DNA from: Candidatus Bathyarchaeota archaeon
GTDB lineage: Archaea; Thermoproteota; Bathyarchaeia; Bathyarchaeales; Bathycorpusculaceae
DNA length: 64,000 bases
Assembly (NCBI GenBank): GCA_963826715.1
Contig: CAWGYA010000006.1
Coordinates: 32,001 to 96,000 of the forward strand
Reading direction: 5' to 3'
Made by a program: the position numbers and the translations under genes. Each line of letters opens with the position of its first letter. Position 1 is the first letter of the stretch. Shown in pieces: positions 2,227 through 53,102 of this stretch. Below the pieces are notes generated by a model. That model had not been told where the DNA came from and did not search any database. It worked only from the letters and a program-made list of their open reading frames with translations.

Positions 2227-3000
2227 ATGACCTTACTTTCTGACACAAGATACATTTTCATAAGGTACATGAAAAAACTCATCCGAACCCCTATCCTGCT
2301 TTTCTTTTCACTCTTTCAACCTATCCTATTTCTAGTGCTTTTCACACAACTACTCACAAGACTTAGTAATTTCCCAGGCATATTGCCCCCCGGAGTTAGC
2401 TATTTAGAGTTTGCAACAGCAGGAATTTTGATGCAAAACGCATTTGGAAGCGCATTACAATCAGGAAACTCCATAGTCGCCGATATTGATACGGGCTATC
2501 TACAAAAAATGCTCGTGACACCATTGAGCCGCCCAGCAATTCTTTTAGGACGACTAAGCAGCGATGCCTTCAGAGTAGTCGTACAATCAGCCATAATCTT
2601 GGGACTATCATACGCGTTAGGTGCCTATGTCACAACCGGCATTCTCGGAATTCTGGGAATATTCTTCACTCTTGCATTCTTTGGACTTGCTTGGTCAGGA
2701 ATTTCCCTATTTTTGGGTATGAAAACAAGAAGTTCTGAAACAGTTTTCGCAATAGGCGGAATCTTAACCTTTCCATTGCTTTTCTTGAGCCCTGCATTAT
2801 TTCCAATTGACTTCCTACCTGAATGGGTTAGAACCGTCTCCATGTTTAACCCTGTAAGCTACGCGGTGAACGCTAGCAGGGCATTCATGATTACCGGCTA
2901 CGATTGGGGGACGATACTTCCAGCTTGGGGAGTAATCGGGCTTGTCGCCTTGATAACGCTGAGCGCCACATTATACCAATTCAGAAAAGTAGTCAGCTAA
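2227..3000 (+). CDS. ABC-2 type permease (DrrB-like)
   Basis: Six hydrophobic segments, NPVSYAVNASR motif, adjacent to the ATPase. Confidence 0.9.
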   Translation: MTLLSDTRYIFIRYMKKLIRTPILLFFSLFQPILFLVLFTQLLTRLSNFPGILPPGVSYLEFATAGILMQNAFGSALQSGNSIVADIDTGYLQKMLVTPLSRPAILLGRLSSDAFRVVVQSAIILGLSYALGAYVTTGILGILGIFFTLAFFGLAWSGISLFLGMKTRSSETVFAIGGILTFPLLFLSPALFPIDFLPEWVRTVSMFNPVSYAVNASRAFMITGYDWGTILPAWGVIGLVALITLSATLYQFRKVVS

Positions 3001-3373
3001 AAGAAACAAGAAACGCTGATTGAATGCATGCGAAGACAATAACTCGAGTAGCCAATTGATACCCTAAGAAAAACTCTAATAATCCAGTCGGTTCCTTAAA
3101 ATGCCACCAACAAAGCTGAAAAAATCCTAAAAAACAAAACGCACATACACAAACGAAAACGCTTTTCTAAAAAACTATGAAAAATTGCGTTGTTCATAGC
3201 AAATTAACACATTTATGTCAAAAACCAAAATCGAACAACTGAACTCTTGGACAAAATTGACCACACACACCACACAAATGTCTCAAAAATTTAAATCAAA
3301 GCCCATATATGTAAGGCAATTGACCATTTTTTGCACAAAACCACCTATATTTCGCCACTGTACATTATATATT

Positions 3374-3592
3374 GTAGGCCGGGAAGTACGCTTTAAATGC
3401 GATGCACCAAGGCAAAGAGTGAATCGATCAAAACAGCGAAAAATCGATTCGCGACTAAAAATCTGCTTTGATGGGCTGAAACAGCACGTTGCAGTAAGGC
3501 TTGAGCGACAGGGTCAAAACGGTGAAAGACCCCGAAGCGGCAAAGAAAAGTCTTAATGGACCGCACAACACTAAGGCTTAGACCCGGCCTGC
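3374..3592 (+). ncRNA. novel structured ncRNA candidate, copy 1 (homolog at 36430-36659)
   Basis: 10-bp terminal stem GUAGGCCGGG/CCCGGCCUGC; two stem-loop/pseudoknot modules; covariation with copy 2; CTATATTT box at 3345-3352. Confidence 0.8.
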
Positions 3593-3612
3593 TCTTCTAA
3601 TTATTTTACCTA

Positions 3613-7462: not shown

Positions 7463-10400
7463 CTACTGCCGCGGTAGCAGATCCACATACTCAGGATTTA
7501 CTTCACCGTGCTTGCTAAGAAGTATCTGGTTTATTTTTCGCCATTCACCGCTAATGCTTGGCCAGATAGGTCCGGCGATTATACTTTTCTTAACATACTC
7601 ATCTAAGGCCCCCTCCCGCTTGAGCATTCTTGTCTTCCAATCCACACTAATTAAATTCGAGCGACGCAAATACTGGATATTGCGGGCCATCTGATTTTGG
7701 TTAATCGGGTAAGCAAGAGCGCTGTTTAAGTCATCAGCTAAGGATTCAATAGAAAACTCTTCTTCCGCACGCAAACTAATAGCAGCTATCATATCCTGCA
7801 TTAGCTTCGCGGTTCGGGTCACATAGAAAGCGCGTTTCGGCATCAGCACTTGCTCAAGGCGATAAGCGTGACGCTTGTAAAACCAACCTTTGACCAATTC
7901 AGCCACCAATAAGTAAGCACCTAAAAGCAATGCCAAAACAGCATAGAACAACAGGGGAGGCGCCACGAATCCAAAGATTTCACCAAGCGGAGTAAAGGGC
8001 ACAAGCATTGCAAAGGAAATGATAGCTATACTACTGATTACAAGATATTTACTTGGCTTACTCTTCCAAAAAGGCCGACGTCTAGTCCGTATGACAAAGA
8101 CAACTAGAATTTGTGAAACAAGAGATTCGATGAACCACGCCGTCTGAAACAGATGTTCCGGATATCTTGGGTCAGCTAGCAACGCTACAGGAATTATGGG
8201 TAAGAAAACAAAAAGCATGCTAAAGAAAGTTAAAAAGTCAAAGAGTGAACTGACAGGACCAAGAGAAATCATAAATCGCCTAATGAAAGTGATGTCCCAA
8301 CGTTTAGGGCGCTCAACATATTCGTCGTCAACCTTGTCGGTTGTAATCGTTGATTGAGAGAAATCATAGAGCAGATTGTTCAACAAAATTTGTACGGGAA
8401 GCATGGGCAGAAAAGGCAGAAAAATGGCCGCGGCTGCGACGCTAAACATGTTACCAAAGTTTGAACTGACACCTATCATGATGTATTTCATTGTGTTACC
8501 GAAAGTCTTTCGACCCTCTAAGACACCTTCTGCGAGCACAGTTAGGTCATTTCGGGAGAGAATGATATCCGCAGATTCTCGCGCCACATCAACCGCATTA
8601 TCAACCGAGATTCCTACATCGCTTGATTTGAGTGAAGGCGCATCATTGATGCCATCGCCCATATAACCGACAACATGCCCATTCTTTTTGAGAAGCGTGA
8701 TGATGCGATCTTTCTGAACAGGATTAACGCGACAAAAAACATTAGCTTCCTCCACAATCGCCATCAAAGCCTCATCAGTAATATTTGCTATTTCACTACC
8801 TAAAGCGACACCTTTAATTTCAAAACCTAACTCATCGCAAACTTTGCGTGTAACAAGTTCGTTATCGCCCGTTACAATCTTAAGTTCTATTCCTGCTTTA
8901 CTAAGTAACCCAAGGGATTGCTTTGCGGTTTCTTTGGGCGGATCCAAAAAAGCCACAAAACCCAAGAAAACCATTTCTTTTTCATCATTAATGGAGTAAA
9001 CAGCTTTGTCTTCTTTTAACCGCTTATACGCAACCCCGAGAACACGTAGACCCTCAACGCTATAATCATGATATTTCTGCTCGATTTTTTTGCGGGTTTC
9101 TTCATTTAGATCAGAAATTACTCTATCAAGTTCATAGTAAGAGCAAACCTTTAGAATTTCTTCTGGCGCACCTTTGGCAATAAAGAATCTTTCCTCTTCA
9201 CATTCAACCACGACAGAAACACGGCGGCGAATAAAGTCAAAGGGCACCTCATCAATTTTCTGATATTTTGAAACGTCAACTTCTTTGTGCTTTAAAATAG
9301 CCTCATCAAGGGGACTGCGTAATCCAGTTTGAAAGTTACTGTTTAAAAAGGAGTACATGAAGACTTTTTCATCTTCCTCACCCTCCAAATTTACGTTTAA
9401 GATGAGTTTTATACGGTTTTCAGTAAGCGTCCCTGTTTTGTCGGTGCAGAGCACGTTCATGCTCCCGAAGTTCTCAATGGCAGTAAGGCGCTTGACAATA
9501 ACCCCCTTCTTGGACATTGCCATGGCACCACGAGAAAGGTTAATTGTGATAATCATCGGCAACAATTCAGGAGTTAAACCTACAGCAAGCGCCACCGCAA
9601 AAAGCAGCGCACTCACAACACCGGTATCAGTAGGGTTACGGAGCGAAATTGTTAGAAACACAAAAATAACTAACAGGAACGTAACTTGCATAATTAGAAA
9701 ACCAAAACCCTTGATTCCCCGCTCAAACTCAGTTTCGGGTGATTTCTCTGTCAGTTTCTTGGCTATTTTACCATATTCAGTGGCACTCCCTGTTTTAACC
9801 ACAACAGCTGATGCTGTGCCGCTGACCGCTGACGTCCCCATGAAGCAGTAGTTGCTCCAGTCAACTGTTGACCCTGTTTTAGCTTTCACGGAGTTAGAAG
9901 TTTTTTCAACAGGGAATGATTCACCTGTCAAAGCGGATTGGTTGATGAAAAGGTCTTTGGCGCTAATTACGCGACAATCAGCAGGTGCAATGTCACCGGC
10001 GGATAGAAAAATCACATCGCCGGGAACAAGCTCAGGCAGCTTTATCTCCTGCCTTATCCCATCGCGGAATACAGTGGCGGTTGAGGTAACTTTCTGTTTT
10101 AAAAGTTGAGCAGCCTTCTCCGCCTTATTTTCCTGGTAATAATCTAAAATTACACTAACAAAAATAATCGTGAAGATAATTGAGGTATTAGCGATTTCGC
10201 CAAGGTAACCTGAAACTAACCCCGCAATTAAAAGTATGATTACTAAGGGGCTTTTGAAATGCAGCAGAAATTCTTTAACTGCAGAGTGTTTGTGTTGGCG
10301 CGCAAGCTCATTTGGGCCATAGTATTCAAGGCGCTCAATCGCTTGCTCTGAGCTGAGTCCTTGCGGAAAAGTTTCTAGACGACTTAAAAGTTCCTCAATC

Positions 10401-10495
10401 GGCAACGTCACGAGTTCTTCGCTGGTGAAAGCTGACTTCATGTTGGCAGCTGCATCTCCATTTTTATTGTTGCCGTTCTGGATTGGTTTTGCCAT
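7463..10495 (-). CDS. mgtA: Mg2+-translocating P-type ATPase with C-terminal extension
   Basis: TGES, PELLP, DKTGTLT, GDGINDAP, SSNFGNMFS and LLNNLLYD (P3B type); ATG at 10495 after GGAGTG. Confidence 0.92.
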   Translation of the reverse strand: MAKPIQNGNNKNGDAAANMKSAFTSEELVTLPIEELLSRLETFPQGLSSEQAIERLEYYGPNELARQHKHSAVKEFLLHFKSPLVIILLIAGLVSGYLGEIANTSIIFTIIFVSVILDYYQENKAEKAAQLLKQKVTSTATVFRDGIRQEIKLPELVPGDVIFLSAGDIAPADCRVISAKDLFINQSALTGESFPVEKTSNSVKAKTGSTVDWSNYCFMGTSAVSGTASAVVVKTGSATEYGKIAKKLTEKSPETEFERGIKGFGFLIMQVTFLLVIFVFLTISLRNPTDTGVVSALLFAVALAVGLTPELLPMIITINLSRGAMAMSKKGVIVKRLTAIENFGSMNVLCTDKTGTLTENRIKLILNVNLEGEEDEKVFMYSFLNSNFQTGLRSPLDEAILKHKEVDVSKYQKIDEVPFDFIRRRVSVVVECEEERFFIAKGAPEEILKVCSYYELDRVISDLNEETRKKIEQKYHDYSVEGLRVLGVAYKRLKEDKAVYSINDEKEMVFLGFVAFLDPPKETAKQSLGLLSKAGIELKIVTGDNELVTRKVCDELGFEIKGVALGSEIANITDEALMAIVEEANVFCRVNPVQKDRIITLLKKNGHVVGYMGDGINDAPSLKSSDVGISVDNAVDVARESADIILSRNDLTVLAEGVLEGRKTFGNTMKYIMIGVSSNFGNMFSVAAAAIFLPFLPMLPVQILLNNLLYDFSQSTITTDKVDDEYVERPKRWDITFIRRFMISLGPVSSLFDFLTFFSMLFVFLPIIPVALLADPRYPEHLFQTAWFIESLVSQILVVFVIRTRRRPFWKSKPSKYLVISSIAIISFAMLVPFTPLGEIFGFVAPPLLFYAVLALLLGAYLLVAELVKGWFYKRHAYRLEQVLMPKRAFYVTRTAKLMQDMIAAISLRAEEEFSIESLADDLNSALAYPINQNQMARNIQYLRRSNLISVDWKTRMLKREGALDEYVKKSIIAGPIWPSISGEWRKINQILLSKHGEVNPEYVDLLPRQ

Positions 10496-10517
10496 GAAGC
10501 CCACTCCTTTGAAGCCT

Positions 10518-10659
10518 AAAGTAGAACACACTACTTTTAAAGGGGTTTCTCAATCCCCAACTGGTGTTCCCTGAAACTAAAAAGAACAGCAACCTCTGCA
10601 CGGTTTATTGTTTTCGGTAAAAATTCATGTAGGTAGCCGAAATCAGGGCATTTTCAGCT
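10518..10659 (-). promoter_or_regulatory. structured intergenic region upstream of mgtA
   Basis: Nested pairs AGCUG/CAGUU, CCCUGA/UCAGGG, UUUCGG/CCGAAA; GGGG..CCCC hairpin followed by UUUU; inverted repeat AAAGTAG-N6-CTACTTT. Confidence 0.45.
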
Positions 10660-15246: not shown

Positions 15247-17886
15247 TTATGGTCGTTTTCTGAGCAACAGAATGGTCACAACGAACATAATGGCCACGAA
15301 TATGAAAAGCCCAGCGATTGCTGGAACAAAGTACATATCAGCCATTGATGGGGGTTGAGTTGCCGGTGGAGCTGCTGTTGGCGCTGGCTCTGCTACGGTG
15401 AAAACGGTTTCCTGATATGACGGCCAGTAACCGTTTGTGCCTCCGAATGCTGCGATCACGTAGTATGTTCCTGATATGTCTGGTGTCCAGACAAGGTTAT
15501 AGTTGCCTTTTGAATCAGTCATTGCAGTGCCAATGTCTCTGTAGTTACCGTTTGCATCTACTACACTGATGCCAACTTCAACTCCTTGGAAGGTGCTGGG
15601 CAATGGTTGCTGCTGGTAGATATAACTCATCCAATCGCCCATGTTTGCATCAGAGGAGACTGGTACGCCGTCTGGGAAGCGGGCTGCTTGTTCAATTTGA
15701 GCTGTTCCGGCTGAGAGATCAGTGACAGATCCTTCGATGATTACTGCGCTGCCAAGAACTGAAGCTTTGGGTCCAGCTTGTACTGTGGTGTAACTTGGTC
15801 CTCTGCCTAGAGTGTAGATTTGGTGGTCGTAGCTGTTGAAGAAGTTAGTGTAGCCGTCTGCAATAGCAAAGCTTTCGCCAGCGAATTCACCGGTGGCTGC
15901 GGGTAGAGTAAAGATTTCTGTTCCGTCTGTTGCATTGACTGCTCGCAATAATGCTCCTTTGTAGATTGGAGTTTGGAAAGTGTGTTCTGAAGTTACCAGA
16001 TATACCACCCCATTACCTATTGCGTTGATGAAGGTTGGATATGGTCCGGGAACTTGGAATCCGCTGTTTGTGGTGTTGCCGGGGGTGTTACCGTTTCCGT
16101 AGGTCCAAAGTACATTGCCAGTTGACATGTCATAGCAATAGAGTATGCCTGAGTAGGCACTGCTGTAGCATCGACCGTAAGCTACAACGTTAGACAATGA
16201 GCCAGGTCCGTTGCTACCATAATAGTCAAGTGCCGCTTGTGGTTCTGCAACTTTAATGAGTGCACCTGTGCGCAGATTGAAGAATGCAAATTGTTGAGTC
16301 TGTCTGTATGATTCGCAGAAGTATCCTGAGGGGTCAAGTCCAGCAAATGAGACTGTTGTGATATTGCCAGGGGGGTTGTTTACGTTTTGTCTCCAAAGAA
16401 CCGAGCCGATCATGCCTTTAGATGCATTGAGGTTGACTGCAAAGTATGTGTAGTATGTAGAGGATCCGCCTAGTGATGGGTATGAACCGTTTCTGCAAAG
16501 CAGAATATCACCGTAGATCGCGCCGAGAATGCTCGGGTTATTCGGCATTGTATTGCGCCAAGATATTGATTGGTTTTGGGTTGTTGGGTTAATCCAGTCG
16601 TACATAAAGCCGCTATTTGCTTGGATGTAAGTGCCCGTTTCATCCGTAGTTGTCATGTAATTGAGTGCGCCCATAATTGCTTGGCTCCAGAATCTGCTAG
16701 AATTCCATTGATACAGAATCCAGTCTGGGTTAGTGTTGTTGCCTTGGTTATAGAAGTTGTATTTTATCATCTCACCGCTAGGTCCAATCACACTTGTTCC
16801 AGAGGGAACATTGGTTACGTTGAATATCCAGTTGCCTGTGGCAGCATCGAAGACTTGCCCAAAGTTACTTGTGCAAAGGAATGCGGGTCTGGTTCCGTGG
16901 TAGTCGGGAGTATCCATGTCCTGTATGTAAGCAAACGAGAATGTTGGTAGGTCGCTTCGTCTCCAAATTTCTTGGCCTGTAACGAGGTCAACGCAGACGG
17001 TTGGTAAGATAAGACCAGCAGGAGCGCGGAATCCCATTGAGCCTGTAACCGAGAAGGGTTCTTGGTAGTAGATTCTTCCGTTTACGATTATTGGGTTTAC
17101 ATATCTTTGAGAGTAAGCAGTTCCTTCAAACCATGTATCACCTGGCACTTCTGAGAGGCTTCCGCCTACGACTCCGCCGATTTGACCATCCGGCTTAGTC
17201 CACATAATGTGAGAAGTCTGTGAACCAATGGCGTCTGGTGCAAACTGTCTTTGGTTTGGTCCGTTAGAGCCTCCATATCCTGGCATCCCACTACCTAACC
17301 AGTTCGAACTAATCGACCACCACATACTGTTTTGCCCAAAGATTGGTCTAGTCCAGAATTCAGATGGAAGTGGTGATAGCGGTATGTACGAGATTTGTTC
17401 GTCTTGAACTGTCAGAGTTGTTGTGGCATTGCTTGGTAGGAAGTAGTCGTTGAGGTACGCAGAGGTTGGAGAGTGTGAATAATCATTGACTTTTTGTCCG
17501 TCGAAAATAAATTGTAATGTATAGTCGCCTACTTGGTCAGGGGTAAAGGTTGCAATTTGGTTTGAGGTTGTGTCCCAAACGGTCTCAAATGTTTGGGTAG
17601 TTTTAGTGCCGTCGGGGGCTGTGATGACAAGTTTGTAATTGTGGAATCTGTAATCATTTTCGATGTTTGTATCAGGGTAGGTTGGTGTTAGAAACAGGTA
17701 TATAGGCTCTTGCTGTCCTATGCCGATTGGGTTTATTGTGGCGTATATATGCGCAAACGTTGGAACCTCCCATGAAGGTGTATGTGCTGCGGCGTCTGGC
17801 ATCATAATTGCTGAAGCTGATATCGATACAATAAGCAATATTGCAATACTAATAGTAGATAATTTTCTAAAATATTTTGTTTGCAT
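15247..17886 (-). CDS. secreted PQQ-binding-like beta-propeller repeat protein with C-terminal membrane anchor
   Basis: Signal peptide; propeller motifs CVDLVTGQEIW and YCYDMSTGNVLWTY; Pro/Thr linker and TM ending in RKRP. Confidence 0.85.
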   Translation of the reverse strand: MQTKYFRKLSTISIAILLIVSISASAIMMPDAAAHTPSWEVPTFAHIYATINPIGIGQQEPIYLFLTPTYPDTNIENDYRFHNYKLVITAPDGTKTTQTFETVWDTTSNQIATFTPDQVGDYTLQFIFDGQKVNDYSHSPTSAYLNDYFLPSNATTTLTVQDEQISYIPLSPLPSEFWTRPIFGQNSMWWSISSNWLGSGMPGYGGSNGPNQRQFAPDAIGSQTSHIMWTKPDGQIGGVVGGSLSEVPGDTWFEGTAYSQRYVNPIIVNGRIYYQEPFSVTGSMGFRAPAGLILPTVCVDLVTGQEIWRRSDLPTFSFAYIQDMDTPDYHGTRPAFLCTSNFGQVFDAATGNWIFNVTNVPSGTSVIGPSGEMIKYNFYNQGNNTNPDWILYQWNSSRFWSQAIMGALNYMTTTDETGTYIQANSGFMYDWINPTTQNQSISWRNTMPNNPSILGAIYGDILLCRNGSYPSLGGSSTYYTYFAVNLNASKGMIGSVLWRQNVNNPPGNITTVSFAGLDPSGYFCESYRQTQQFAFFNLRTGALIKVAEPQAALDYYGSNGPGSLSNVVAYGRCYSSAYSGILYCYDMSTGNVLWTYGNGNTPGNTTNSGFQVPGPYPTFINAIGNGVVYLVTSEHTFQTPIYKGALLRAVNATDGTEIFTLPAATGEFAGESFAIADGYTNFFNSYDHQIYTLGRGPSYTTVQAGPKASVLGSAVIIEGSVTDLSAGTAQIEQAARFPDGVPVSSDANMGDWMSYIYQQQPLPSTFQGVEVGISVVDANGNYRDIGTAMTDSKGNYNLVWTPDISGTYYVIAAFGGTNGYWPSYQETVFTVAEPAPTAAPPATQPPSMADMYFVPAIAGLFIFVAIMFVVTILLLRKRP

Positions 17887-22500: not shown

Positions 22501-24399
22501 TCATTTGAGCCTCTCCCGAAGCAACTTCCCAACGAGTTCGGGGTTAGCTTTGCCTCGAACTTCTTTCATAGCGGCACCCATCAGCATACCAAAAACATTC
22601 TTTCCAAGGTTTGCAATTTGAATTTGGTTGGCCAAGATTATACGATCAATCACCGGCACTAAATCTTCTTCAGTGAACATTTTCAATCCCAAAGCAGCAG
22701 TTGCTTCGACTACGGTTTTACCTTCATTTTTAGCAATCCAGCTAAACACATCTGAGAGAGCTTCTTTAGCAAGTTCACCGGAGTCTACTGCTGCAAAGAT
22801 GCCACGAATTTGGTCGTCGGAAACATTTTCCACTAGAACACCATCGCGTTTAAGTGCCTTCAAGGTTTCTGTTAGAAACGCAGCCACTGAAGATGTTGCA
22901 ACCCTGCTAGTTCGAGCAGTTTCCTCAAAGATCCCTATGTATTCAGAGTCGACAAGCTGCTTGGCAAGTTTCTCGTTTAACCCATATTGCTCGACTAGCC
23001 GCGCAAGTTTTTTGTCGGCGGGGTCAGGCAAATTATCCTTAATGGCTTCAACAAGCTCAGTAGTTATCTCTTGTGGCGGTATATCAGTTTCAGGATACAT
23101 GCGAGCGGCACCAGGGCGCGGACGCATATACCGGGTCGTACCATCATCCTTAGCGGTACGCGTCTCCTGAGGTATTCCCAAGCAGGCTTCCTGCGCCCGG
23201 TCCACGACAGCTTTGAGAGCGCCACTAGTATTTTCTACGGTGTCAGCCACGAAAATCACAGCGTCACGCTCTCCTGCAAAGGCTGCCTTTCGAAGTGCAG
23301 CTATCTCTTCGGAGGTAATGCCGTAGTTCGCGAGGTTTTCGTCAGTATGAAAAATGCCGCCAACTCTACCCCAGAATTTAGCGCGATCTGAGAGTTCGCT
23401 CCCAAATCTGAAGTTAGGCATCAACTCTTTTCCGGTTAAACCTGCAAACCCCGGGAGCTTTACAGCAAGAACCTTTTGTTTTTTATCTACTGCCTTGCGG
23501 ATAACCTTACTCTTAGTTTCCTTAAAAATAGCAGTTACGTCTACAAAGTCCGCCTTAAGCGATTCTGCGGTGATACCGCGCTTGGCGAGTTCCCCTATGA
23601 TGGCGATTAAGCCTAGCTGCCGTTGAACCTCATAATCAACCACCGTAGAAATAAGCTCAAGCTCCTGCACACCTTTGATTTCGATAAGGGCACCATTTGG
23701 CAAAGAAACGTTTAGGTCCTGACGAATAGTTCCCAATCCCCGCATAACCTTACCTGTGTCACGCAATATTCTACCTATAGCAAACGCGACTTCTTGGGCT
23801 TCCTGTGGAGAGTAAATCACAGGTGCTGTAGCGACTTCAATTAGAGGGATCCCGAGACGGTCAATGCGGTAGCGAATAGTTTTCCCTTCATCCTGCGTTC
23901 CAGTTTTGCGAGCAGCGTCCTCTTCAAGACTAGCGGCTTGCATAGGGATGGTTTTATCGCCAACTTTTATCCAGCCATCAAGAGCAATAATAGCAGTACG
24001 TTGAAACCCCGTTGTATTGGAACCATCTATAACGGTTTTACGCATTACATGTACTTCGTCAACAGGCTGCATATTCATCATCAAAGAAGCCGTTAAAACA
24101 ACTTTCACCGCTTCAAAATCAATTGGATGCGGCGGTTCCTCGTCCATCTCAACAAGACAGCTGCTTTGACTATTGGCTTCGTAGAGGATTCTAACGCCTT
24201 TCTGGAACTCAAAGTAAGCGGCAGGGTCCACTTGCCCAAGTTCGCTCTGGGTGGGTCTTAGGCGGCGCAGAAAAGTTATTTCGGGTTCTTCCTTGAACAA
24301 AATAGGGGGACAACTACAGAATAGTTTGCTGTTAACTGCAAGTTGCTGATGTATCTCTAAACCGACTTTTAAGCCAACTTTGGCATAATCAATGGTCAT
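22501..24399 (-). CDS. gatE: Glu-tRNA(Gln) amidotransferase subunit E
   Basis: GLKVGLEIHQQL, DGSNTTGFQRT, RGLGTIRQD, RPGAARMYPETD. Confidence 0.97.
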   Translation of the reverse strand: MTIDYAKVGLKVGLEIHQQLAVNSKLFCSCPPILFKEEPEITFLRRLRPTQSELGQVDPAAYFEFQKGVRILYEANSQSSCLVEMDEEPPHPIDFEAVKVVLTASLMMNMQPVDEVHVMRKTVIDGSNTTGFQRTAIIALDGWIKVGDKTIPMQAASLEEDAARKTGTQDEGKTIRYRIDRLGIPLIEVATAPVIYSPQEAQEVAFAIGRILRDTGKVMRGLGTIRQDLNVSLPNGALIEIKGVQELELISTVVDYEVQRQLGLIAIIGELAKRGITAESLKADFVDVTAIFKETKSKVIRKAVDKKQKVLAVKLPGFAGLTGKELMPNFRFGSELSDRAKFWGRVGGIFHTDENLANYGITSEEIAALRKAAFAGERDAVIFVADTVENTSGALKAVVDRAQEACLGIPQETRTAKDDGTTRYMRPRPGAARMYPETDIPPQEITTELVEAIKDNLPDPADKKLARLVEQYGLNEKLAKQLVDSEYIGIFEETARTSRVATSSVAAFLTETLKALKRDGVLVENVSDDQIRGIFAAVDSGELAKEALSDVFSWIAKNEGKTVVEATAALGLKMFTEEDLVPVIDRIILANQIQIANLGKNVFGMLMGAAMKEVRGKANPELVGKLLRERLK

Positions 24400-25752
24400 T
24401 TATCGGTCTCCTTCAAACGTAAGCGACCCCTCTTGGGGTAGCGTGCGAGATGAGTATTCTCCTGCGATATTGGTTTTCAGTAATTTGATTGCTTCTTGAG
24501 GGTCTTCGGTTTGTCCCAATGACCACATAAGTTTTACTAACGCTGTTTCAGGAAACATGTTCTCAAGTGGCACCACGCCAAACGATTGCAGATCTCGACC
24601 TGTGTCATAGACGTTCATATTCACCCTACCCCAAATGCACTGAGAAGCCAAAGCAATCACCAAACCTTCTGCTGAGGCGCGTTTGATGGCGTCAAAGCAG
24701 TATTTGTTCACATGCCCCAACCCCGAACCTTCCAAAAGGATACCTTTCATGCCTCGTTTAACGTAGAAGTCGATGACTGCTGGATCAAGTCCCGGATGGA
24801 ATTTAACTAATGCTACTTTGTCGCTGAATTTTGGTTTTAGGGTTAGTTTGCGGTTCGGGTCTCTTTTCTGGTAGTTACCGTTTATCATGGTTACTTGGAG
24901 GTTTTGGACTTTTGCTATGGGGAAACCGTTGATGGATTTGAAGGTGTCTCTGCGGCTAGTATGACATTTGCGCACCTTGACTCCACGATGTACTACGATT
25001 GCGGTGTCAGAAACCGTCTGGTGCATGGCTAAGCCGACTTCGGCAAACGGTGCTTGGCCTGCAGCTTTTACTGCGGCTATGAGGTTGGTTGCTGCGTCGC
25101 TACTTGGGCGATCAGAAGAGCGTTGAGCACCAACCAGGATAACAGGAACAGGTAAGTTCTGAATTGCAAAACTCAATGCCGCTGAAGTATATGCCATTGT
25201 GTCGGTACCATGTGCAATCACAACACCGTCCACGCCCTCGTCTATGCGCTGTGACACTTTTTTTGCGAGTTCTGTCCAGTCTTGCGGACGGAGGTTTTCG
25301 CTGTAGATGCTGAAAACAATTTCTGTGTCCACACGTGCGACATCGGCTAGCTCAGGCACTACACCGTAGAGGTCACTTGCAGACATGGCGGAACGGACGG
25401 CTCCCGTGCGGTAATCCACGCGGCTGGCTATGGTTCCACCGGTACTCATTATAACTACATGTGGCAGGTTAGGGTTCTGCTTTGGCAATGGAGGCGCGAC
25501 AAAAGTGGGTTTTGGTCCAATACCAATTTTCTCAACCTTAACTTCGGATGTGGCTTCTATACCGATGTTGTAACCGCTCTTCATTTTGATTATTATAGCT
25601 GAGCCTTCCCCGAAGCGGGGGATAAGGATACCCTCCAAGGTTTTACCTTTACTATTGACTTTTAAAATGTCGCCGACACTACAATCTGCCATCTTTAACA
25701 TCTCTAGTGCCTTGCCTCGGTAACCTGAAGCTTCAAGATCACTCATATTCAA
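24400..25752 (-). CDS. gatD: Glu-tRNA(Gln) amidotransferase subunit D
   Basis: TGGTIASRVDYRTG, HGTDT, GAQRSSDRPSSD. Confidence 0.97.
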   Translation of the reverse strand: MNMSDLEASGYRGKALEMLKMADCSVGDILKVNSKGKTLEGILIPRFGEGSAIIIKMKSGYNIGIEATSEVKVEKIGIGPKPTFVAPPLPKQNPNLPHVVIMSTGGTIASRVDYRTGAVRSAMSASDLYGVVPELADVARVDTEIVFSIYSENLRPQDWTELAKKVSQRIDEGVDGVVIAHGTDTMAYTSAALSFAIQNLPVPVILVGAQRSSDRPSSDAATNLIAAVKAAGQAPFAEVGLAMHQTVSDTAIVVHRGVKVRKCHTSRRDTFKSINGFPIAKVQNLQVTMINGNYQKRDPNRKLTLKPKFSDKVALVKFHPGLDPAVIDFYVKRGMKGILLEGSGLGHVNKYCFDAIKRASAEGLVIALASQCIWGRVNMNVYDTGRDLQSFGVVPLENMFPETALVKLMWSLGQTEDPQEAIKLLKTNIAGEYSSRTLPQEGSLTFEGDR

Positions 25753-27341
25753 TTAAGCCTCTTTGAAACGTAAACTCCATCACGCCTGTAACCCAAACGC
25801 ATGTAGTATCGTCTTGTTCCTAACGCACTAATAACTAAAAGCTTTTCCAATCCAAAATCCACTCGTGCAATCCGCTCAGCCTCAGCCAAAAGTTCCTTGC
25901 CAAAACCCCGATGCTGCCATGCGCTGGCTGAATGTTTGCCAACAGGAACAAGAGGACCATAAACATGCAATTCCCTCACGATAGCACATGAGACTTCGGT
26001 AATTTCAGGTCTATGTGCCTTCTCGGAGGGTATACGCATACGCACATAACCTAAAAGCACATTATTTTCGGGGTCTTCAGCCGAAATGAAAACTTCGGTG
26101 CCCCCTGAAGCGCTATACCGTTGAGTTAAGATTTTAACTTTTTCAATATCAGGCCTCACATGATCAACTGCTAAGCGGTGCCCCACTTCACGACAACGGA
26201 TACACTGGCACTGCCCACCTTGCTCTTTTAGTCGTTTCTGCGCAAGCTCCCGCACATCACTTCGTTTTACCCCAGCTAAAATCAATCTTGCAGGGATATC
26301 ACGTTGCACACGCATCACCCTCACCCACGGGGGGATTGTTTTTTTGATTTCTGCAATCAAAGAAGTAGCTTCCTCGGTTGTATAAGGCGTGTAGGTGCCC
26401 TGATGGTACCATTCATAAGCTTTGGTGCCTGCGATGGCTAGACATGGATAGATTTTAATCATGTCTGGCTTAAACATAGAATCAGTAAAAATTCGATGAA
26501 ATGCCAATTCATCTTTTGGTTTATTGGAACCTGGCATTCCAGGCATCATGTGGTAAACAATCTTTAATCCTGAATCTTTAGCGATTTGAGTTGCCTCAAT
26601 CACGTCTGCGACGGAGTGGGTTCTGCCTACTAAGTTGTAGATTTGGTCATCTGGGTTTTGAACACCAAGTTCAATGCGAGTTACGCCCATTTCAAGCATA
26701 GCATCAATGTGAAGTTGCTTTGCCCAGTCAGGGCGAGTTTCAACTGTAATGCCGACAATACGGATTTTACTGACCTCTGCGTTTGCTTTGGCTTCCTCCA
26801 AACTATCTGAGTTTTTGCCGGTGATAGCATCAAGGCAACGCTGAATAAACCATGTTTGATAATCTAAGGGTGTCGCAGGGAAGGTTCCGCCCATAATAAT
26901 GAGTTCAATTTTGTCGACTTTGTGCCCAATCGCCGTAAGTTGATGTTTGCGATTCTGTACTTGCATGTAGGGATCAAAAGAATTTTGGCTACCACGCAGC
27001 GCTGCTGGTTCATATCCTGTGTAACTTTGGGGCGAACCAATTGTCGGTCCACCGGGACAGTAAGCGCATGGTTCAGGCTGAGGGCAGGGATAGGGTTTGG
27101 TCATGGTGGCGATAACGGTTACTCCACTGATGGCTCGAGTGTTTTTTCGCCTAATGATTGGGAGTAGCTTCTTGGCTTCTGATGCTGACAAAGCCTTAAT
27201 CAAATCAGCGTTAGAAGGCACTGCTTCAAGTCGATATTTGGCTGCGACCTTGATCTTTAGGCGATTAACATCATCACTTGTAGGTGAGGACGCAGAAAGT
27301 AGAGTAGTTATGATTTCTCGGAGCGCAATTTGATTAGTCAA
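25749..27341 (-). CDS. elp3: Elp3 tRNA uridine(34) carboxymethyltransferase (radical SAM + KAT)
   Basis: CPQPEPCAYCPGG, ETRPD, RVQRDIP, RELHVYG, QHRGFG. Confidence 0.95.
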   Translation of the reverse strand: MTNQIALREIITTLLSASSPTSDDVNRLKIKVAAKYRLEAVPSNADLIKALSASEAKKLLPIIRRKNTRAISGVTVIATMTKPYPCPQPEPCAYCPGGPTIGSPQSYTGYEPAALRGSQNSFDPYMQVQNRKHQLTAIGHKVDKIELIIMGGTFPATPLDYQTWFIQRCLDAITGKNSDSLEEAKANAEVSKIRIVGITVETRPDWAKQLHIDAMLEMGVTRIELGVQNPDDQIYNLVGRTHSVADVIEATQIAKDSGLKIVYHMMPGMPGSNKPKDELAFHRIFTDSMFKPDMIKIYPCLAIAGTKAYEWYHQGTYTPYTTEEATSLIAEIKKTIPPWVRVMRVQRDIPARLILAGVKRSDVRELAQKRLKEQGGQCQCIRCREVGHRLAVDHVRPDIEKVKILTQRYSASGGTEVFISAEDPENNVLLGYVRMRIPSEKAHRPEITEVSCAIVRELHVYGPLVPVGKHSASAWQHRGFGKELLAEAERIARVDFGLEKLLVISALGTRRYYMRLGYRRDGVYVSKRLN

Positions 27342-35487: not shown

Positions 35488-35994
35488 CTAGCCTTCATAT
35501 GCTTTTTCTAGGTCTTTGATGACAATCTTTTTCATCTTAAGCATTGCATCCATGACTCTTTTTGCTTTAATTTTATCTTTGTCAGTTAGTAGTTCGCCCA
35601 TTCGCTTAGGAATAATCTGCCATGAGAGGCCGTACTTATCTTTCAGCCAACCGCATACCTCAGACTCTGGAACCGCCGATAGCTTTTCCCAATAGTAATC
35701 AACCTCTTCTTGATCCGCGCACTCTACATAGAAAGATGTCGCCTCTGTGAACTTGAATATTGGGCCTCCATCAAGTGCCATAAAACGCTGTCCGTTAAGC
35801 TCAAATATAGCTGTCAGAATCTTTCCTTCCATCCCCTTAACTGGAATGTTCGATGGTTCCTCCGGGTAACGTTGAATGCTTACTATCACTGAGTTTTTAG
35901 AGCTCTTAGGAGAGGAATTAAAAATTGATATATAGAATTTTATAGCTTCCTCAGCTTCTTTATCAAACCATAAACAAGGAACAATTTTTTGCAC
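35488..35994 (-). CDS. VOC family protein (PhnB/3-demethylubiquinone-9 methyltransferase-like)
   Basis: QKIVPCLWFD..AEEA, FMALDGGP, CGWLKDKYGLSWQI. Confidence 0.9.
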   Translation of the reverse strand: MQKIVPCLWFDKEAEEAIKFYISIFNSSPKSSKNSVIVSIQRYPEEPSNIPVKGMEGKILTAIFELNGQRFMALDGGPIFKFTEATSFYVECADQEEVDYYWEKLSAVPESEVCGWLKDKYGLSWQIIPKRMGELLTDKDKIKAKRVMDAMLKMKKIVIKDLEKAYEG

Positions 35995-36341: not shown

Positions 36342-36429
36342 CCTCGTTATGAATTCAGAAGGATTAAGTTTGATATCAAAAAAGAGGGGAAAATGGGAAA
36401 ACCTAAATTTCTTTTTCTTCCACTCAATA

Positions 36430-36659
36430 TTGCAGATCTGGTCTGAGCCTTATTGTCGAACGCAGCCCATCTAAACCACGTCTTAGCTGCAACAGATTCG
36501 TTCGCCGCTTGGAATCGCTGCATCATGGAGTAGATGCTTCAACAGCACATGACCAGCCCACAAAGGCAAAGACTTAGTCGCGGGCCAATCGTTCGCTGTT
36601 TAGAGTGGCTCACATCTGTGCCTTGTGCATGCGTCTAAAGCTTGCTCCCAGACCTGTAA
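36430..36659 (-). ncRNA. novel structured ncRNA candidate, copy 2 (homolog of 3374-3592)
   Basis: Terminal stem UUACAGGUCUGG/CCAGAUCUGCAA; shares GCUUUA, AUGCAC-AAGGCA, AAACAGCGAA, CGCGACUAA, UGGGCUG and UAAGGCUyAGACC with copy 1; TTTATAGC box at ~36680-36688. Confidence 0.8.
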
Positions 36660-36878
36660 CTACAATTAGAGCAGGGTCTGCTATAAATTTTGTGACATAT
36701 ATGCTATAAAAGCAAACAAAAATGTATCATTTAGTACAACAGTTTGGGTAAACTCAGAAAAAAAATTTAATACCAACCCGGTAACTATACATATAGTTAT
36801 CCAAACGGCAAAAAATTACTTGTCAACTCTAAAGGTTTAGATTCTTCACAACTCAAGCAAGCAATTGATTCCAAAAAT

Positions 36879-37223
36879 TTATTCTAAATCTTTTACAATA
36901 CAGCTCATCTGTGAGATAACTTCTTTCTGCAGAGTATTCACAAGTTCGAAAGTTAAATCGTCGATAACTTGATGAATGTCAGGATCCACAATGGAGTACA
37001 TGCGTTTGGTTCCATCTTTACGACAACGGATTATGCCTACGTCCCGAAGGATTTTTAGATGTCTAGATACAACGGGTTGAATGAGGTTCAGGTGAGGAAC
37101 GATTTCACAGACACATTTTTCGCCGTCACGTAGAAAAGAGAGAATTTCTAAGCGGTCAGCTGAGGATAGAGCGTGGAATACTTGGGCTTTGAAGCGGAGT
37201 CGGGTAGAAGTTTGTAGGGTCAT
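36879..37223 (-). CDS. ArsR/SmtB metalloregulator
   Basis: VFHALS..DRLEIL, EKCVCEI, QPVVSRHLKIL. Confidence 0.92.
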   Translation of the reverse strand: MTLQTSTRLRFKAQVFHALSSADRLEILSFLRDGEKCVCEIVPHLNLIQPVVSRHLKILRDVGIIRCRKDGTKRMYSIVDPDIHQVIDDLTFELVNTLQKEVISQMSCIVKDLE

Positions 37224-38491: not shown

Positions 38492-38576
38492 GCAGGGGTC
38501 GCCAAGCCAGGTCAAAGGCGTAGGCTTCAGGAGCCTATCCCGCAGGGGTTCGTGGGTTCAAATCCCACCCCCTGCA
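38492..38576 (+). tRNA. tRNA-Leu(CAG)
   Basis: GCAGGGG/CCCCTGC acceptor stem, TAGGC-TTCAGGA-GCCTA anticodon arm, long variable arm, GTTCAAATC T-loop; CCA follows. Confidence 0.97.
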
Positions 38577-38714
38577 CCAAATAGCAGACTATTGGGGGTC
38601 AACCTCAAAGAAACCTTGGCAAAACAGTTTATAAAAAAATTTTACGTATTTGTTTCTTTTTTACCATGTACTAGTTTCCCAGTTTATTGGACAAGTTCAA
38701 TAATTCTAAATAAA

Positions 38715-53018: not shown

Positions 53019-53028
53019 ATTATCGGAG

Positions 53029-53102
53029 GGCCGGGGCCGAGATTTGAACTCGGGCGAAAGGCTCCACAGGCCTCTATGCTGCCAAGCTACATCACCCCGG
53101 CC
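53029..53102 (-). tRNA. tRNA-His(GTG), G-1 encoded
   Basis: G-GCCGGGG/CCCCGGC-C acceptor stem, GAGGC-CTGTGGA-GCCTT anticodon arm, GTTCAAATC T-loop. Confidence 0.96.

Follow-up and report, generated by a model that had tools for sequence, protein, structure and literature searches.

A pseudoknotted, probably stand-alone RNA gene family of Bathyarchaeia and its synteny with the gene for a nuclease-fold protein

Within a stretch of 64,000 nucleotides (nt) from a Candidatus Bathyarchaeota archaeon genome (assembly GCA_963826715.1, contig CAWGYA010000006.1, positions 32,001 to 96,000; the whole stretch is called the window), an earlier note, made from the sequence alone, had marked positions 36,430 to 36,659 as the second copy of a novel RNA family. 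Comparison with related genomes now makes it very probable that this element, referred to here as copy 2, is a real, stand-alone gene for a structured RNA of a new family, with predicted expression. Across related lineages the RNA shows deep synteny and co-occurrence with a nuclease-fold protein of ~220 amino acids (aa), the gene of which we label k1. That the RNA works with k1 is put forward tentatively from sequence comparison, as a possibility that comes close to being probable, and the combined account, a new stand-alone RNA in partnership with k1, is on balance favored. Bathyarchaeia are among the most abundant archaea of anoxic soils and sediments, and a literature search returned almost nothing on their non-coding RNAs. 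The family described here is a complex, strongly constrained RNA class, carried by the majority of genomes in a genus that counts at least 120 species and also by several sister families.

The case for an RNA gene rests on comparison between genomes, because the folding of single copies only moderately beats that of shuffled sequences. Copy 2 folds with z = -2.13 on the minus strand and z = -0.53 on the plus strand, only mildly beyond shuffles, and the first copy in the window (copy 1) folds with z = -3.77 on its plus strand. A consensus structure computed by RNAalifold from a MAFFT alignment of 24 sequences contains 53 pairs, 29 of them with compensatory changes. A covariance model, R1, was built from a trimmed MAFFT alignment of 24 homologues, and when 97 sequences were aligned to the model, 95.4% of cells paired (82.0% in shuffles) and 53 of 58 pairs changed on both sides, values reached by none of 500 shuffles; sliding the partner columns by 1-3 positions lowered pairing to 28-41%. 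The 97-sequence alignment follows the nested helices of the model, a bias in their favor, and the MAFFT-based RNAalifold result agrees with it. Two pseudoknots, described below, lie outside the model, yet covary. The strand is also constrained: the G-U pairs of copy 2 are compatible with the minus strand only, and since essentially invariant U-G pairs recur in the family, only the assigned strand fits.

All forms of the family share a constant handle, and the interior that it encloses differs by lineage; the parts as they stand in copy 2 are listed in Table 1. The handle begins with P1, a helix of nine base pairs (bp) that joins the 5' and 3' ends and covaries in the family at all nine pairs. 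It continues through a purine-rich internal loop, with the consensus G(G/A)AG(C/U)A-N opposite U(U/C)AGA (GGAGCA/UYAGAC in the genus form), into P2, a helix of the general form GCU... with ...GGC in which one U-G pair is kept almost without exception (95 of 96 sequences). In the genus form, P2 encloses two tandemly duplicated arms, A and B. Each arm rises from a lower helix through an asymmetric loop, which bears GAYNAAGAC on its 3' strand, to an upper helix of 11 bp and an apical loop of ~13 nt (AAAAC(A/G)G(C/U)GAAA). The central tetramer of this apical loop, C(A/G)G(C/U), matches as its complement (G/A)C(C/U)G directly 3' of the same arm and so forms a 4-bp pseudoknot per arm. The arm A pseudoknot pairs in 98.1% of cells, one of its pairs being AU in 67 sequences, GU in 14 and GC in 12, and the arm B pseudoknot pairs in 96.8% of cells, with one pair CG in 41 sequences, UA in 20 and UG in 13. 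Duplication of the arm is indicated by several loci in which arm B aligns to the profile positions of arm A. The pairings listed in the earlier note all fall within 36658-36431, including CAUCUA/UAGAUG, UGCAGC-GAUUC/GAAUC-(U)GUUGCA and the loop CAAGCGGCGAAC, but one of them, CCAUG/CGUGG, overlaps the conserved unpaired AAGAC motif and is no helix of the family consensus. An internal partial duplication is seen in genome G013 (L043:1506-1823), where positions 21-231 of the profile come immediately after positions 1-111 in a locus of ~318 nt.

Table 1. Coordinates of the two RNA copies, of the parts of copy 2 and of adjacent features, counted from the first position of the window (bit scores and the approximate E-value are those of model R1)
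Feature	Position	Strand	Remarks
RNA copy 2	36431..36658	minus	228-nt core; paralogue subtype 2; 191.2 bits, E 2e-42
RNA copy 1	3373..3593	plus	221 nt; paralogue subtype 1; without 3' extension; 199.7 bits
P1, 5' strand CAGGUCUGG	36648..36656	minus	pairs with 36433-36441
Handle internal loop, 5' side GAGCAA	36642..36647	minus	nearly invariant across all forms
P2, 5' strand GCUUUA	36636..36641	minus	pairs with 36447-36452
Arm A, bent hairpin	36554..36631	minus	loop CAGC (36598-36595) pseudoknots with GCUG (36557-36554)
Arm B, duplicate of arm A	36463..36537	minus	loop CGGC (36507-36504) pseudoknots with GCUG (36466-36463)
P2, 3' strand UAAGGC	36447..36452	minus	partner of 36636-36641
Handle internal loop, 3' side UCAGA	36442..36446	minus	GGCUYAGAC nearly invariant across all forms
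P1, 3' strand CCAGAUCUG	36433..36441	minus	partner of 36648-36656
3' extension hairpin, from GAGUGGAAG, ending in CUC and U6 (36383-36378)	36378..36425	minus	degenerate in copy 2
TATA box of copy 2, TTTATAGC	36680..36687	minus	centered ~26 nt upstream of P1
BRE-like CACAAAA and upstream element of partial dyad symmetry (TTTTGT..CA....TGTCACAAAA)	36688..36715	minus	conserved upstream of subtype-2 loci
TATA box of copy 1, CTATATTT	3345..3352	plus	upstream of copy 1
ArsR/SmtB-family regulator gene, upstream neighbor	36879..37223	minus	NF033788, 3e-25; same neighbor in 5 of 76 loci
PF06983 gene (3-demethylubiquinone-9 3-methyltransferase-like), next downstream	35488..35994	minus	~437 nt away

The covariance model finds exactly two matches in the 2.64-Mb genome, copy 1 and copy 2; its E-values, like those of the handle model introduced below, are rough because calibration was shortened. 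With BLASTN, neither copy matches anything in its own genome beyond the query itself, and the copies are thus too diverged for that program, so that the covariance model was required. Copy 2 (minus strand) nevertheless aligns end to end with 3374-3592 (plus strand), diverged helices alternating with conserved blocks, in agreement with the earlier claim of a common architecture, and the second module that had been described as rewritten corresponds to arm B, the duplicate of arm A and the part in which the copies are least alike. Homologues at 66-82% identity were found by BLASTN in 16 of 24 and 13 of 24 congeners with the two queries, each query recovering its own paralogue. Both copies are old paralogues, and their divergence with retained pairing speaks for selection on both, as had been proposed: the covarying helices are kept in separate paralogue clades, each conserved in other congeners. 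The further claim that copy 2 lies in an accessory region stays tentative: the G+C content is unremarkable, and the flanks vary among congeners, but the upstream ArsR and ferredoxin genes are common to four or five species. Among the sequencing runs listed for the locus are four soil DNA runs, all from one study, and no RNA run. An open reading frame (ORF) of 113 aa at 3215-3556 (plus strand) overlaps copy 1 (3373-3593) and is probably spurious; it might lead annotators to record the RNA as a hypothetical protein.

The distribution of the family was followed at three levels, in 120 genomes from the genus, a sample of 151 from the order and another of 151 drawn phylum-wide, with families and genera given labels of our own (f and g), f1 being the family of the window. 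R1 matches 96 of the 120 genomes of the genus (64 of the 73 of high quality), and the positive genomes hold one copy in 64 cases, two in 26, three in five and four in one; the two copies found here thus fall within a range of one to four. Local duplication seems to be one route to such paralogues, as in one genome (G015) two copies stand in tandem ~860 nt apart (L023:634-869 and 1492-1727) and in another (G055) a full copy is accompanied, 1.2 kb away, by an inverted degenerate copy scoring 81 bits (L095:1501-1731 and 2979-3204). In the order sample R1 matches 75 of 151 genomes. By family, and leaving out the window's own genome, the matches amount to 33 of 34 genomes in f11, four of four in f5, 19 of 35 in f7 (all 19 in genus g16), 14 of 35 in f1, two of 25 in f6 and two of three in f12.

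Many of the matches in the order sample are only ~135 nt long and comprise P1, the loop, P2 and one arm, and in genus g16 long and short forms occur within one genome. A third form, of ~165 nt, has only the handle in common with the others and carries a rod-like interior that covaries separately, with 46 pairs of which 33 are compensated. A second covariance model, R2, was based on the handle; phylum-wide it matches 23 of 151 genomes, which outside the window's order include both genomes of f14, 11 of 13 genomes of f19 and one genome of f40. R1 in the same sample matches genomes of the same order only. A pattern scan, used for organism names only, gave among the matches listed Candidatus Bathyarchaeia or Bathyarchaeota metagenome-assembled genomes plus chance bacterial matches, the pattern being one that recovers 59 of 110 sequences in our own set. 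With these names, the mostly Bathyarchaeial origin of named k1 homologues and the archaeal genes and RNAs of the genome, Bathyarchaeia is very probably the group to which the genome belongs. Together these forms put the evolution of RNA domains on view, with a constant handle, swapped interiors and the duplication of one arm into two.

The novelty claimed for the family in the earlier note has stood up to comparison with Rfam 15 and with the literature. At gathering score, Rfam 15 recognizes two tRNAs in the window and nothing else, no family is reported over either copy at E <= 10, and 20 related loci gave only six unrelated sub-threshold rows. A full-text literature search, with supplements outside its scope, found no description of the RNA family; the excerpted passages of PMC5069720 concern other RNAs.

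Several known classes of RNA were rejected on specific grounds. The genome's own archaeal RNase P RNA (RNaseP_arch, C2:42497-42795, 170.2 bits) and signal recognition particle (SRP) RNA (Archaea_SRP, C8:1251245-1251560, 151.9 bits) lie elsewhere, so the element is neither of these. Two further classes, 5S rRNA and tmRNA, were weighed in general terms only and dropped. Box C/D small RNAs (sRNAs) carry a C box (RUGAUGA) and a D box (CUGA) beside a terminal stem, and both boxes are absent from the family consensus. H/ACA sRNAs are hairpins in which a two-sided pocket serves pseudouridylation and an ACA box comes immediately after the lower stem on its 3' side; in the present family an ACA does follow each arm (alignment columns 212-214 and 376-378), but only past the pseudoknot strand, at a distance of 7 nt from the stem, and the internal loops, of 1-2 by 8 nt, offer no pocket. 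A 6S RNA is one long rod with a central open bubble, and a 6S-like RNA was rejected on account of the branched consensus with its two arms and pseudoknots. Type III antitoxin RNAs consist of short tandem repeats that immediately precede the toxin gene and share its strand and operon, an arrangement from which the present RNA departs in that it faces away from k1 or is unlinked to it. Finally, the omega-RNA of TnpB/IscB shares the strand of the nuclease gene and is encoded at, or overlapping, the 3' end of that gene within a transposon end; a head-to-head arrangement with k1 and flanks in which no transposon features were seen speak against this class.

A ribozyme, self-cleaving or other, is an alternative that the structure itself brings to mind, given the compact pseudoknotted domains with their invariant unpaired purines. 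One of the 20 related loci also gave a weak match to the Pistol ribozyme (22.1 bits, E 2.7), which we reject as chance, since it is below gathering score and confined to that locus. No other ribozyme family matches the window or the 20 loci in Rfam, the context gives no sign of processing, and we hold this alternative to be quite improbable.

The organization of the locus points to a gene of its own. By its sequence signals the RNA would be transcribed from its own promoter, with a TATA box and an element like the B recognition element (BRE) at fixed distance, and is not a gene leader. In 74 aligned upstream regions a TTTATA/TTATAT box is centered ~26 nt before P1 and is preceded by a purine-rich, BRE-like stretch; the upstream box that had been pointed out for copy 2 is this TATA box (TTTATAGC at 36687-36680, minus strand), and a second TTTATAGC occurs at 36710-36703 on the same strand. 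The dyad element further upstream (36688-36715) could be a transcription-factor site, and an ArsR-family gene is found directly upstream in five of 76 loci. At the other end, a hairpin of the form GUGGAAG...CGG-aaaa-CCG...UCCAC, followed by four or more U and ending 53-69 nt past P1, is present in 30 of 76 unique loci, each of them a member of the clade of copy 2, and of the 46 loci that lack it 31 have a T-rich stretch within 30 nt. The U6 at 36383-36378 is probably the end of the transcript. On this evidence copy 2 would encode a structured RNA of ~228 nt, or ~280 nt with the 3' hairpin and U6.

The same loci bear on whether the element is instead a cis riboswitch or leader of its downstream gene, which for copy 2 would be the PF06983 gene starting at 35994. 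The architecture is aptamer-like, and copy 2 has, beyond P1, a hairpin and U-run and then, ~380 nt on, a same-strand gene. Of 76 unique loci, 21 have a same-strand gene as their nearest one downstream (24-799 nt away), but in 53 that nearest gene is convergent (in two there is none), which argues against a 5'-untranslated-region riboswitch. Moreover, the same-strand genes belong to many mutually unrelated families, and in f11, where only 16-93 nt separate the end of the RNA from the stop codon of a convergent DNA ligase gene, as after copy 1, where a convergent DUF1697 gene lies 21 nt beyond the RNA, there is no room for an ORF. The cis reading is thus largely refuted by context, and we give it very little credence. 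The earlier note had come to the same view from copy 2 itself: its figure for the distance to the next gene agrees with the ~437 nt between the 3' end of P1 and the same-strand ORF start at 35994, and the intervening element that it mentioned is accounted for, at least in part, by the 3' hairpin and U6 (36425-36378). Across the 76 loci the RNA does not occupy the 5' untranslated region of any one gene class. The earlier note's proposal of a trans-acting RNA is supported in that gene context contradicts the cis reading, and action in trans is itself a reading of gene organization. We infer expression, trans action, binding to k1 and any activity of the RNA.

Flanking genes were tabulated in search of a recurring partner. 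No neighbor is consistent within the genus, and k1 recurs outside it. Neighbors in the genus and in g16 are often metal or cofactor genes, among them those for CbiM, CobD, HypD with an adjoining AIR-synthase-related protein, VIT1, ArsR and CxxCxxCC proteins (L016, L018, L022, L063, L111, L116 and others); as a theme this was rejected, since neither orientation nor gene class is consistent.

The link with k1 is seen most directly outside the genus, where the RNA gene is flanked on one side by the convergent ATP-dependent DNA ligase gene and on the other by the oppositely transcribed k1. As read from coordinates, RNA and k1 stand head-to-head in 32 of 33 RNA-positive genomes of f11, and the RNA adjoins k1 also in loci of f5, f6 and f12. 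In the phylum sample every one of the 21 R2 matches outside the genus, including those of f14, f19 and f40, sits 82-294 nt from k1 and faces away from it. The two also co-occur. In the order sample k1 occurs in 71 of the 75 RNA-positive genomes and in 18 of the 76 without an RNA match, and with filters off 13 of 14 k1 loci fetched from these 18 seemingly RNA-less genomes proved to hold a diverged RNA of ~165 nt beside k1. Within the genus the two genes are not linked, and still 93 genomes carry both and 12 carry neither, against three with the RNA alone and 12 with k1 alone. Ten of these last 12 genomes were examined (G082 and G050 were left out), and three retain, next to k1, an RNA of the handle type but have no two-arm form, which suggests that relocated two-arm genes replaced the ancestral RNA gene. 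The ancestral arrangement would have been an RNA gene head-to-head with k1.

The k1 protein has no Pfam or NCBIfam match, and its best hit in a sequence search of the PDB has E 0.21. A structure model is confident (pLDDT, the predicted local distance difference test, 88.2) and shows an N-terminal helical hairpin followed by a restriction-endonuclease-like core, a fold like that of PD-(D/E)xK nucleases. Over residues 46-202 this core matches 3dnx (Z 9.6), XisH (2okf; Z 9.3), AF1548 (1y88; Z 8.8) and NucS (2vld; Z 7.5), which are moderate values, a Z of 7-8 being a common best score according to the aligner's own notes. Residues E54, K59, D81, E94, E96 and K119 are invariant in 16 sequences, and a catalytic role for these acidic residues and lysine is putative. 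In the ESM Atlas k1 falls among unnamed clusters only, the nearest named one being PDDEXK_14 (0.85), which is a lead only. The k1 family occurs in 59 of 151 genomes of the phylum sample; its named homologues are mostly from Bathyarchaeia, with further members in Nitrosopumilus, Sulfolobus, Pyrodictium, Aigarchaeota and Brockarchaeota. We consider that the family (loci L260-L314) merits a family description of its own, and the RNA offers a concrete route to these uncharacterized proteins, which are without a Pfam model and have relatives in Nitrosopumilus, Sulfolobus and Pyrodictium.

Several observations currently weigh against a partnership of the RNA with k1. First, the RNA is not beside k1 in this genome (where k1 lies outside the window, at C8:317543-318172, with no RNA adjoining), in most of its genus or in genus g16, so that the link rests on other lineages and on co-occurrence. 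Second, co-occurrence is imperfect: 12 genomes of the genus have k1 and no detected two-arm RNA, and three have the RNA and no k1, two of those three being only 52-56% complete. Third, related genomes are not independent observations, and the counts of RNA and k1 given above therefore overstate the evidence. Fourth, no RNA was found beside k1 at E <= 0.1 in loci of Nitrosopumilus, Sulfolobus, Pyrodictium, Aigarchaeota, Brockarchaeota or the Geocrenenecus type. Fifth, the fold matches of k1 are moderate, and a Foldseek search with the k1 model gave no match at E <= 0.001. Finally, a head-to-head synteny can be kept for long periods without a functional link.

The main rival holds that the stand-alone RNA is unrelated to k1, being a trans-acting sensor of a small molecule or ion, a sponge for another protein or the scaffold of another ribonucleoprotein (RNP; for example with L7Ae), with the head-to-head arrangement an inherited gene order. 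It would explain why the RNA genes left k1 in two genera while k1 stayed, and why k1 occurs in many lineages in which no RNA is detectable; the arms, moreover, look like those of riboswitches in their conserved unpaired nucleotides, their pseudoknots and their one-arm and tandem forms, and several of the genes that neighbor it in the genus are related to metals or cofactors (CbiM, CobD, HypD with the AIR-synthase-related protein, VIT1 and ArsR). It sits poorly, however, with the adjacency of RNA and k1 in all 21 sampled genomes outside the genus, which span several families and at least two orders, and with their joint absence from 12 genomes of the genus in which the genes are unlinked, and the neighboring genes show no consistent class or orientation. 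We regard an RNA unrelated to k1 as unlikely, if a serious contender.

A mobile or defense module is a further alternative, in which the RNA would be a type III antitoxin-like RNA that neutralizes k1, or the guide or scaffold of an RNA-dependent nuclease. The RNA does adjoin a nuclease-fold gene and is built of repeated pseudoknotted units. Both genes, however, are single-copy, vertically conserved core genes with a stable synteny next to the DNA ligase gene outside the genus; the RNA faces away from k1, and lies neither upstream of it in an operon nor inside the 3' end of the nuclease gene; and, as pairing takes up the variable parts, none of them stands out as a guide-like segment. This alternative, for which no defense-system library was searched, is improbable.

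Returning to the favored account, in which the new RNA is a partner of k1, we hypothesize that it acts in trans as a cofactor, regulator or decoy of the protein. The constant handle would serve as a protein-binding platform and the pseudoknotted arms as an exchangeable functional or sensing module. Should the RNA and k1 indeed work together, they would represent a new kind of archaeal RNP. A bolder version, which we rate as rather doubtful, is that they form a hitherto unknown, ancient archaeal RNP, in which the activity or targeting of a PD-(D/E)xK nuclease is controlled by a dedicated RNA whose handle binds the protein and whose arms sense a cellular signal; in the genus, the RNA gene would then have moved away from k1, doubled its sensing arm and given rise to specialized paralogues, copy 2 among them.

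Likenesses to known systems are offered as leads. The bacterial OLE, raiA, ROOL and GOLLD RNAs, orphan structured RNAs, are likewise stand-alone, strongly covarying and multi-domain, have many invariant unpaired nucleotides, belong to one clade each and were of unknown function at discovery; the present RNA differs in being archaeal, smaller (135-230 nt) and without an Rfam 15 match, and in combining a constant handle with an exchangeable interior. The paired ends, adjoining constant internal loop and variable interior also recall Y RNA with Ro60 and box C/D RNA with L7Ae, although RUGAUGA and CUGA boxes are missing here and the candidate partner is a PD-(D/E)xK-fold protein. ToxI/ToxN and the omega-RNA of TnpB/IscB share with this system a pseudoknotted RNA beside a co-occurring nuclease-fold gene. 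Unlike them, the present RNA is transcribed away from k1, both genes are core and single-copy in most lineages, and there are no short direct repeats, no guide and no embedding in the nuclease gene.

The arms and the handle loop have parallels of their own. In the SAM-I and c-di-GMP-II aptamers a purine-rich asymmetric loop likewise lets an apical loop pair with a strand at the base, and tandem G-A steps flank the upper helix. A kink-turn (K-turn) consists of a C helix, a 3-nt bulge, tandem sheared G-A/A-G pairs and an NC helix, and its non-bulged strand carries nothing additional. In the family consensus tandem G-A steps stand beside P1 and beside each upper helix, with 4 (handle) or ~9 (arms) extra nt on the other strand, so that the internal loops, as read from the consensus, depart from the simple K-turn rule; in contrast to the two aptamers, moreover, the RNA is not upstream of genes. 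Glycine riboswitches similarly occur in related organisms as singlet or tandem domains within one closing helix, but they are cis-regulatory and unrelated to this RNA in sequence and fold, and the present RNA has a pseudoknot per domain. The handle loop, with AGCA opposite YAGA, is purine-rich and near-symmetric like the AGCA opposite CAGG of SRP RNA helix 8; this is a lead only, as its topology is permuted and it measures 5-6 by 5 nt, not 4 by 4, and the real SRP RNA lies elsewhere.

Other features of the window are of separate interest. The genes gatE, gatD and elp3 (archaeal GatD/GatE and Elp3) follow in a row at 22501-27341 on the minus strand. An MgtA-type P-type ATPase (TIGR01524, 951 bits) is encoded at 7463-10531 (minus strand), and an ORF of 879 aa at 15247-17886 (minus strand) is without any NCBIfam match. 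A tRNA-Leu(CAG) gene of 88 nt lies at 38492-38579 on the plus strand, ~1.8 kb from copy 2, and a tRNA-His(GUG) gene at 53028-53101 on the minus strand.

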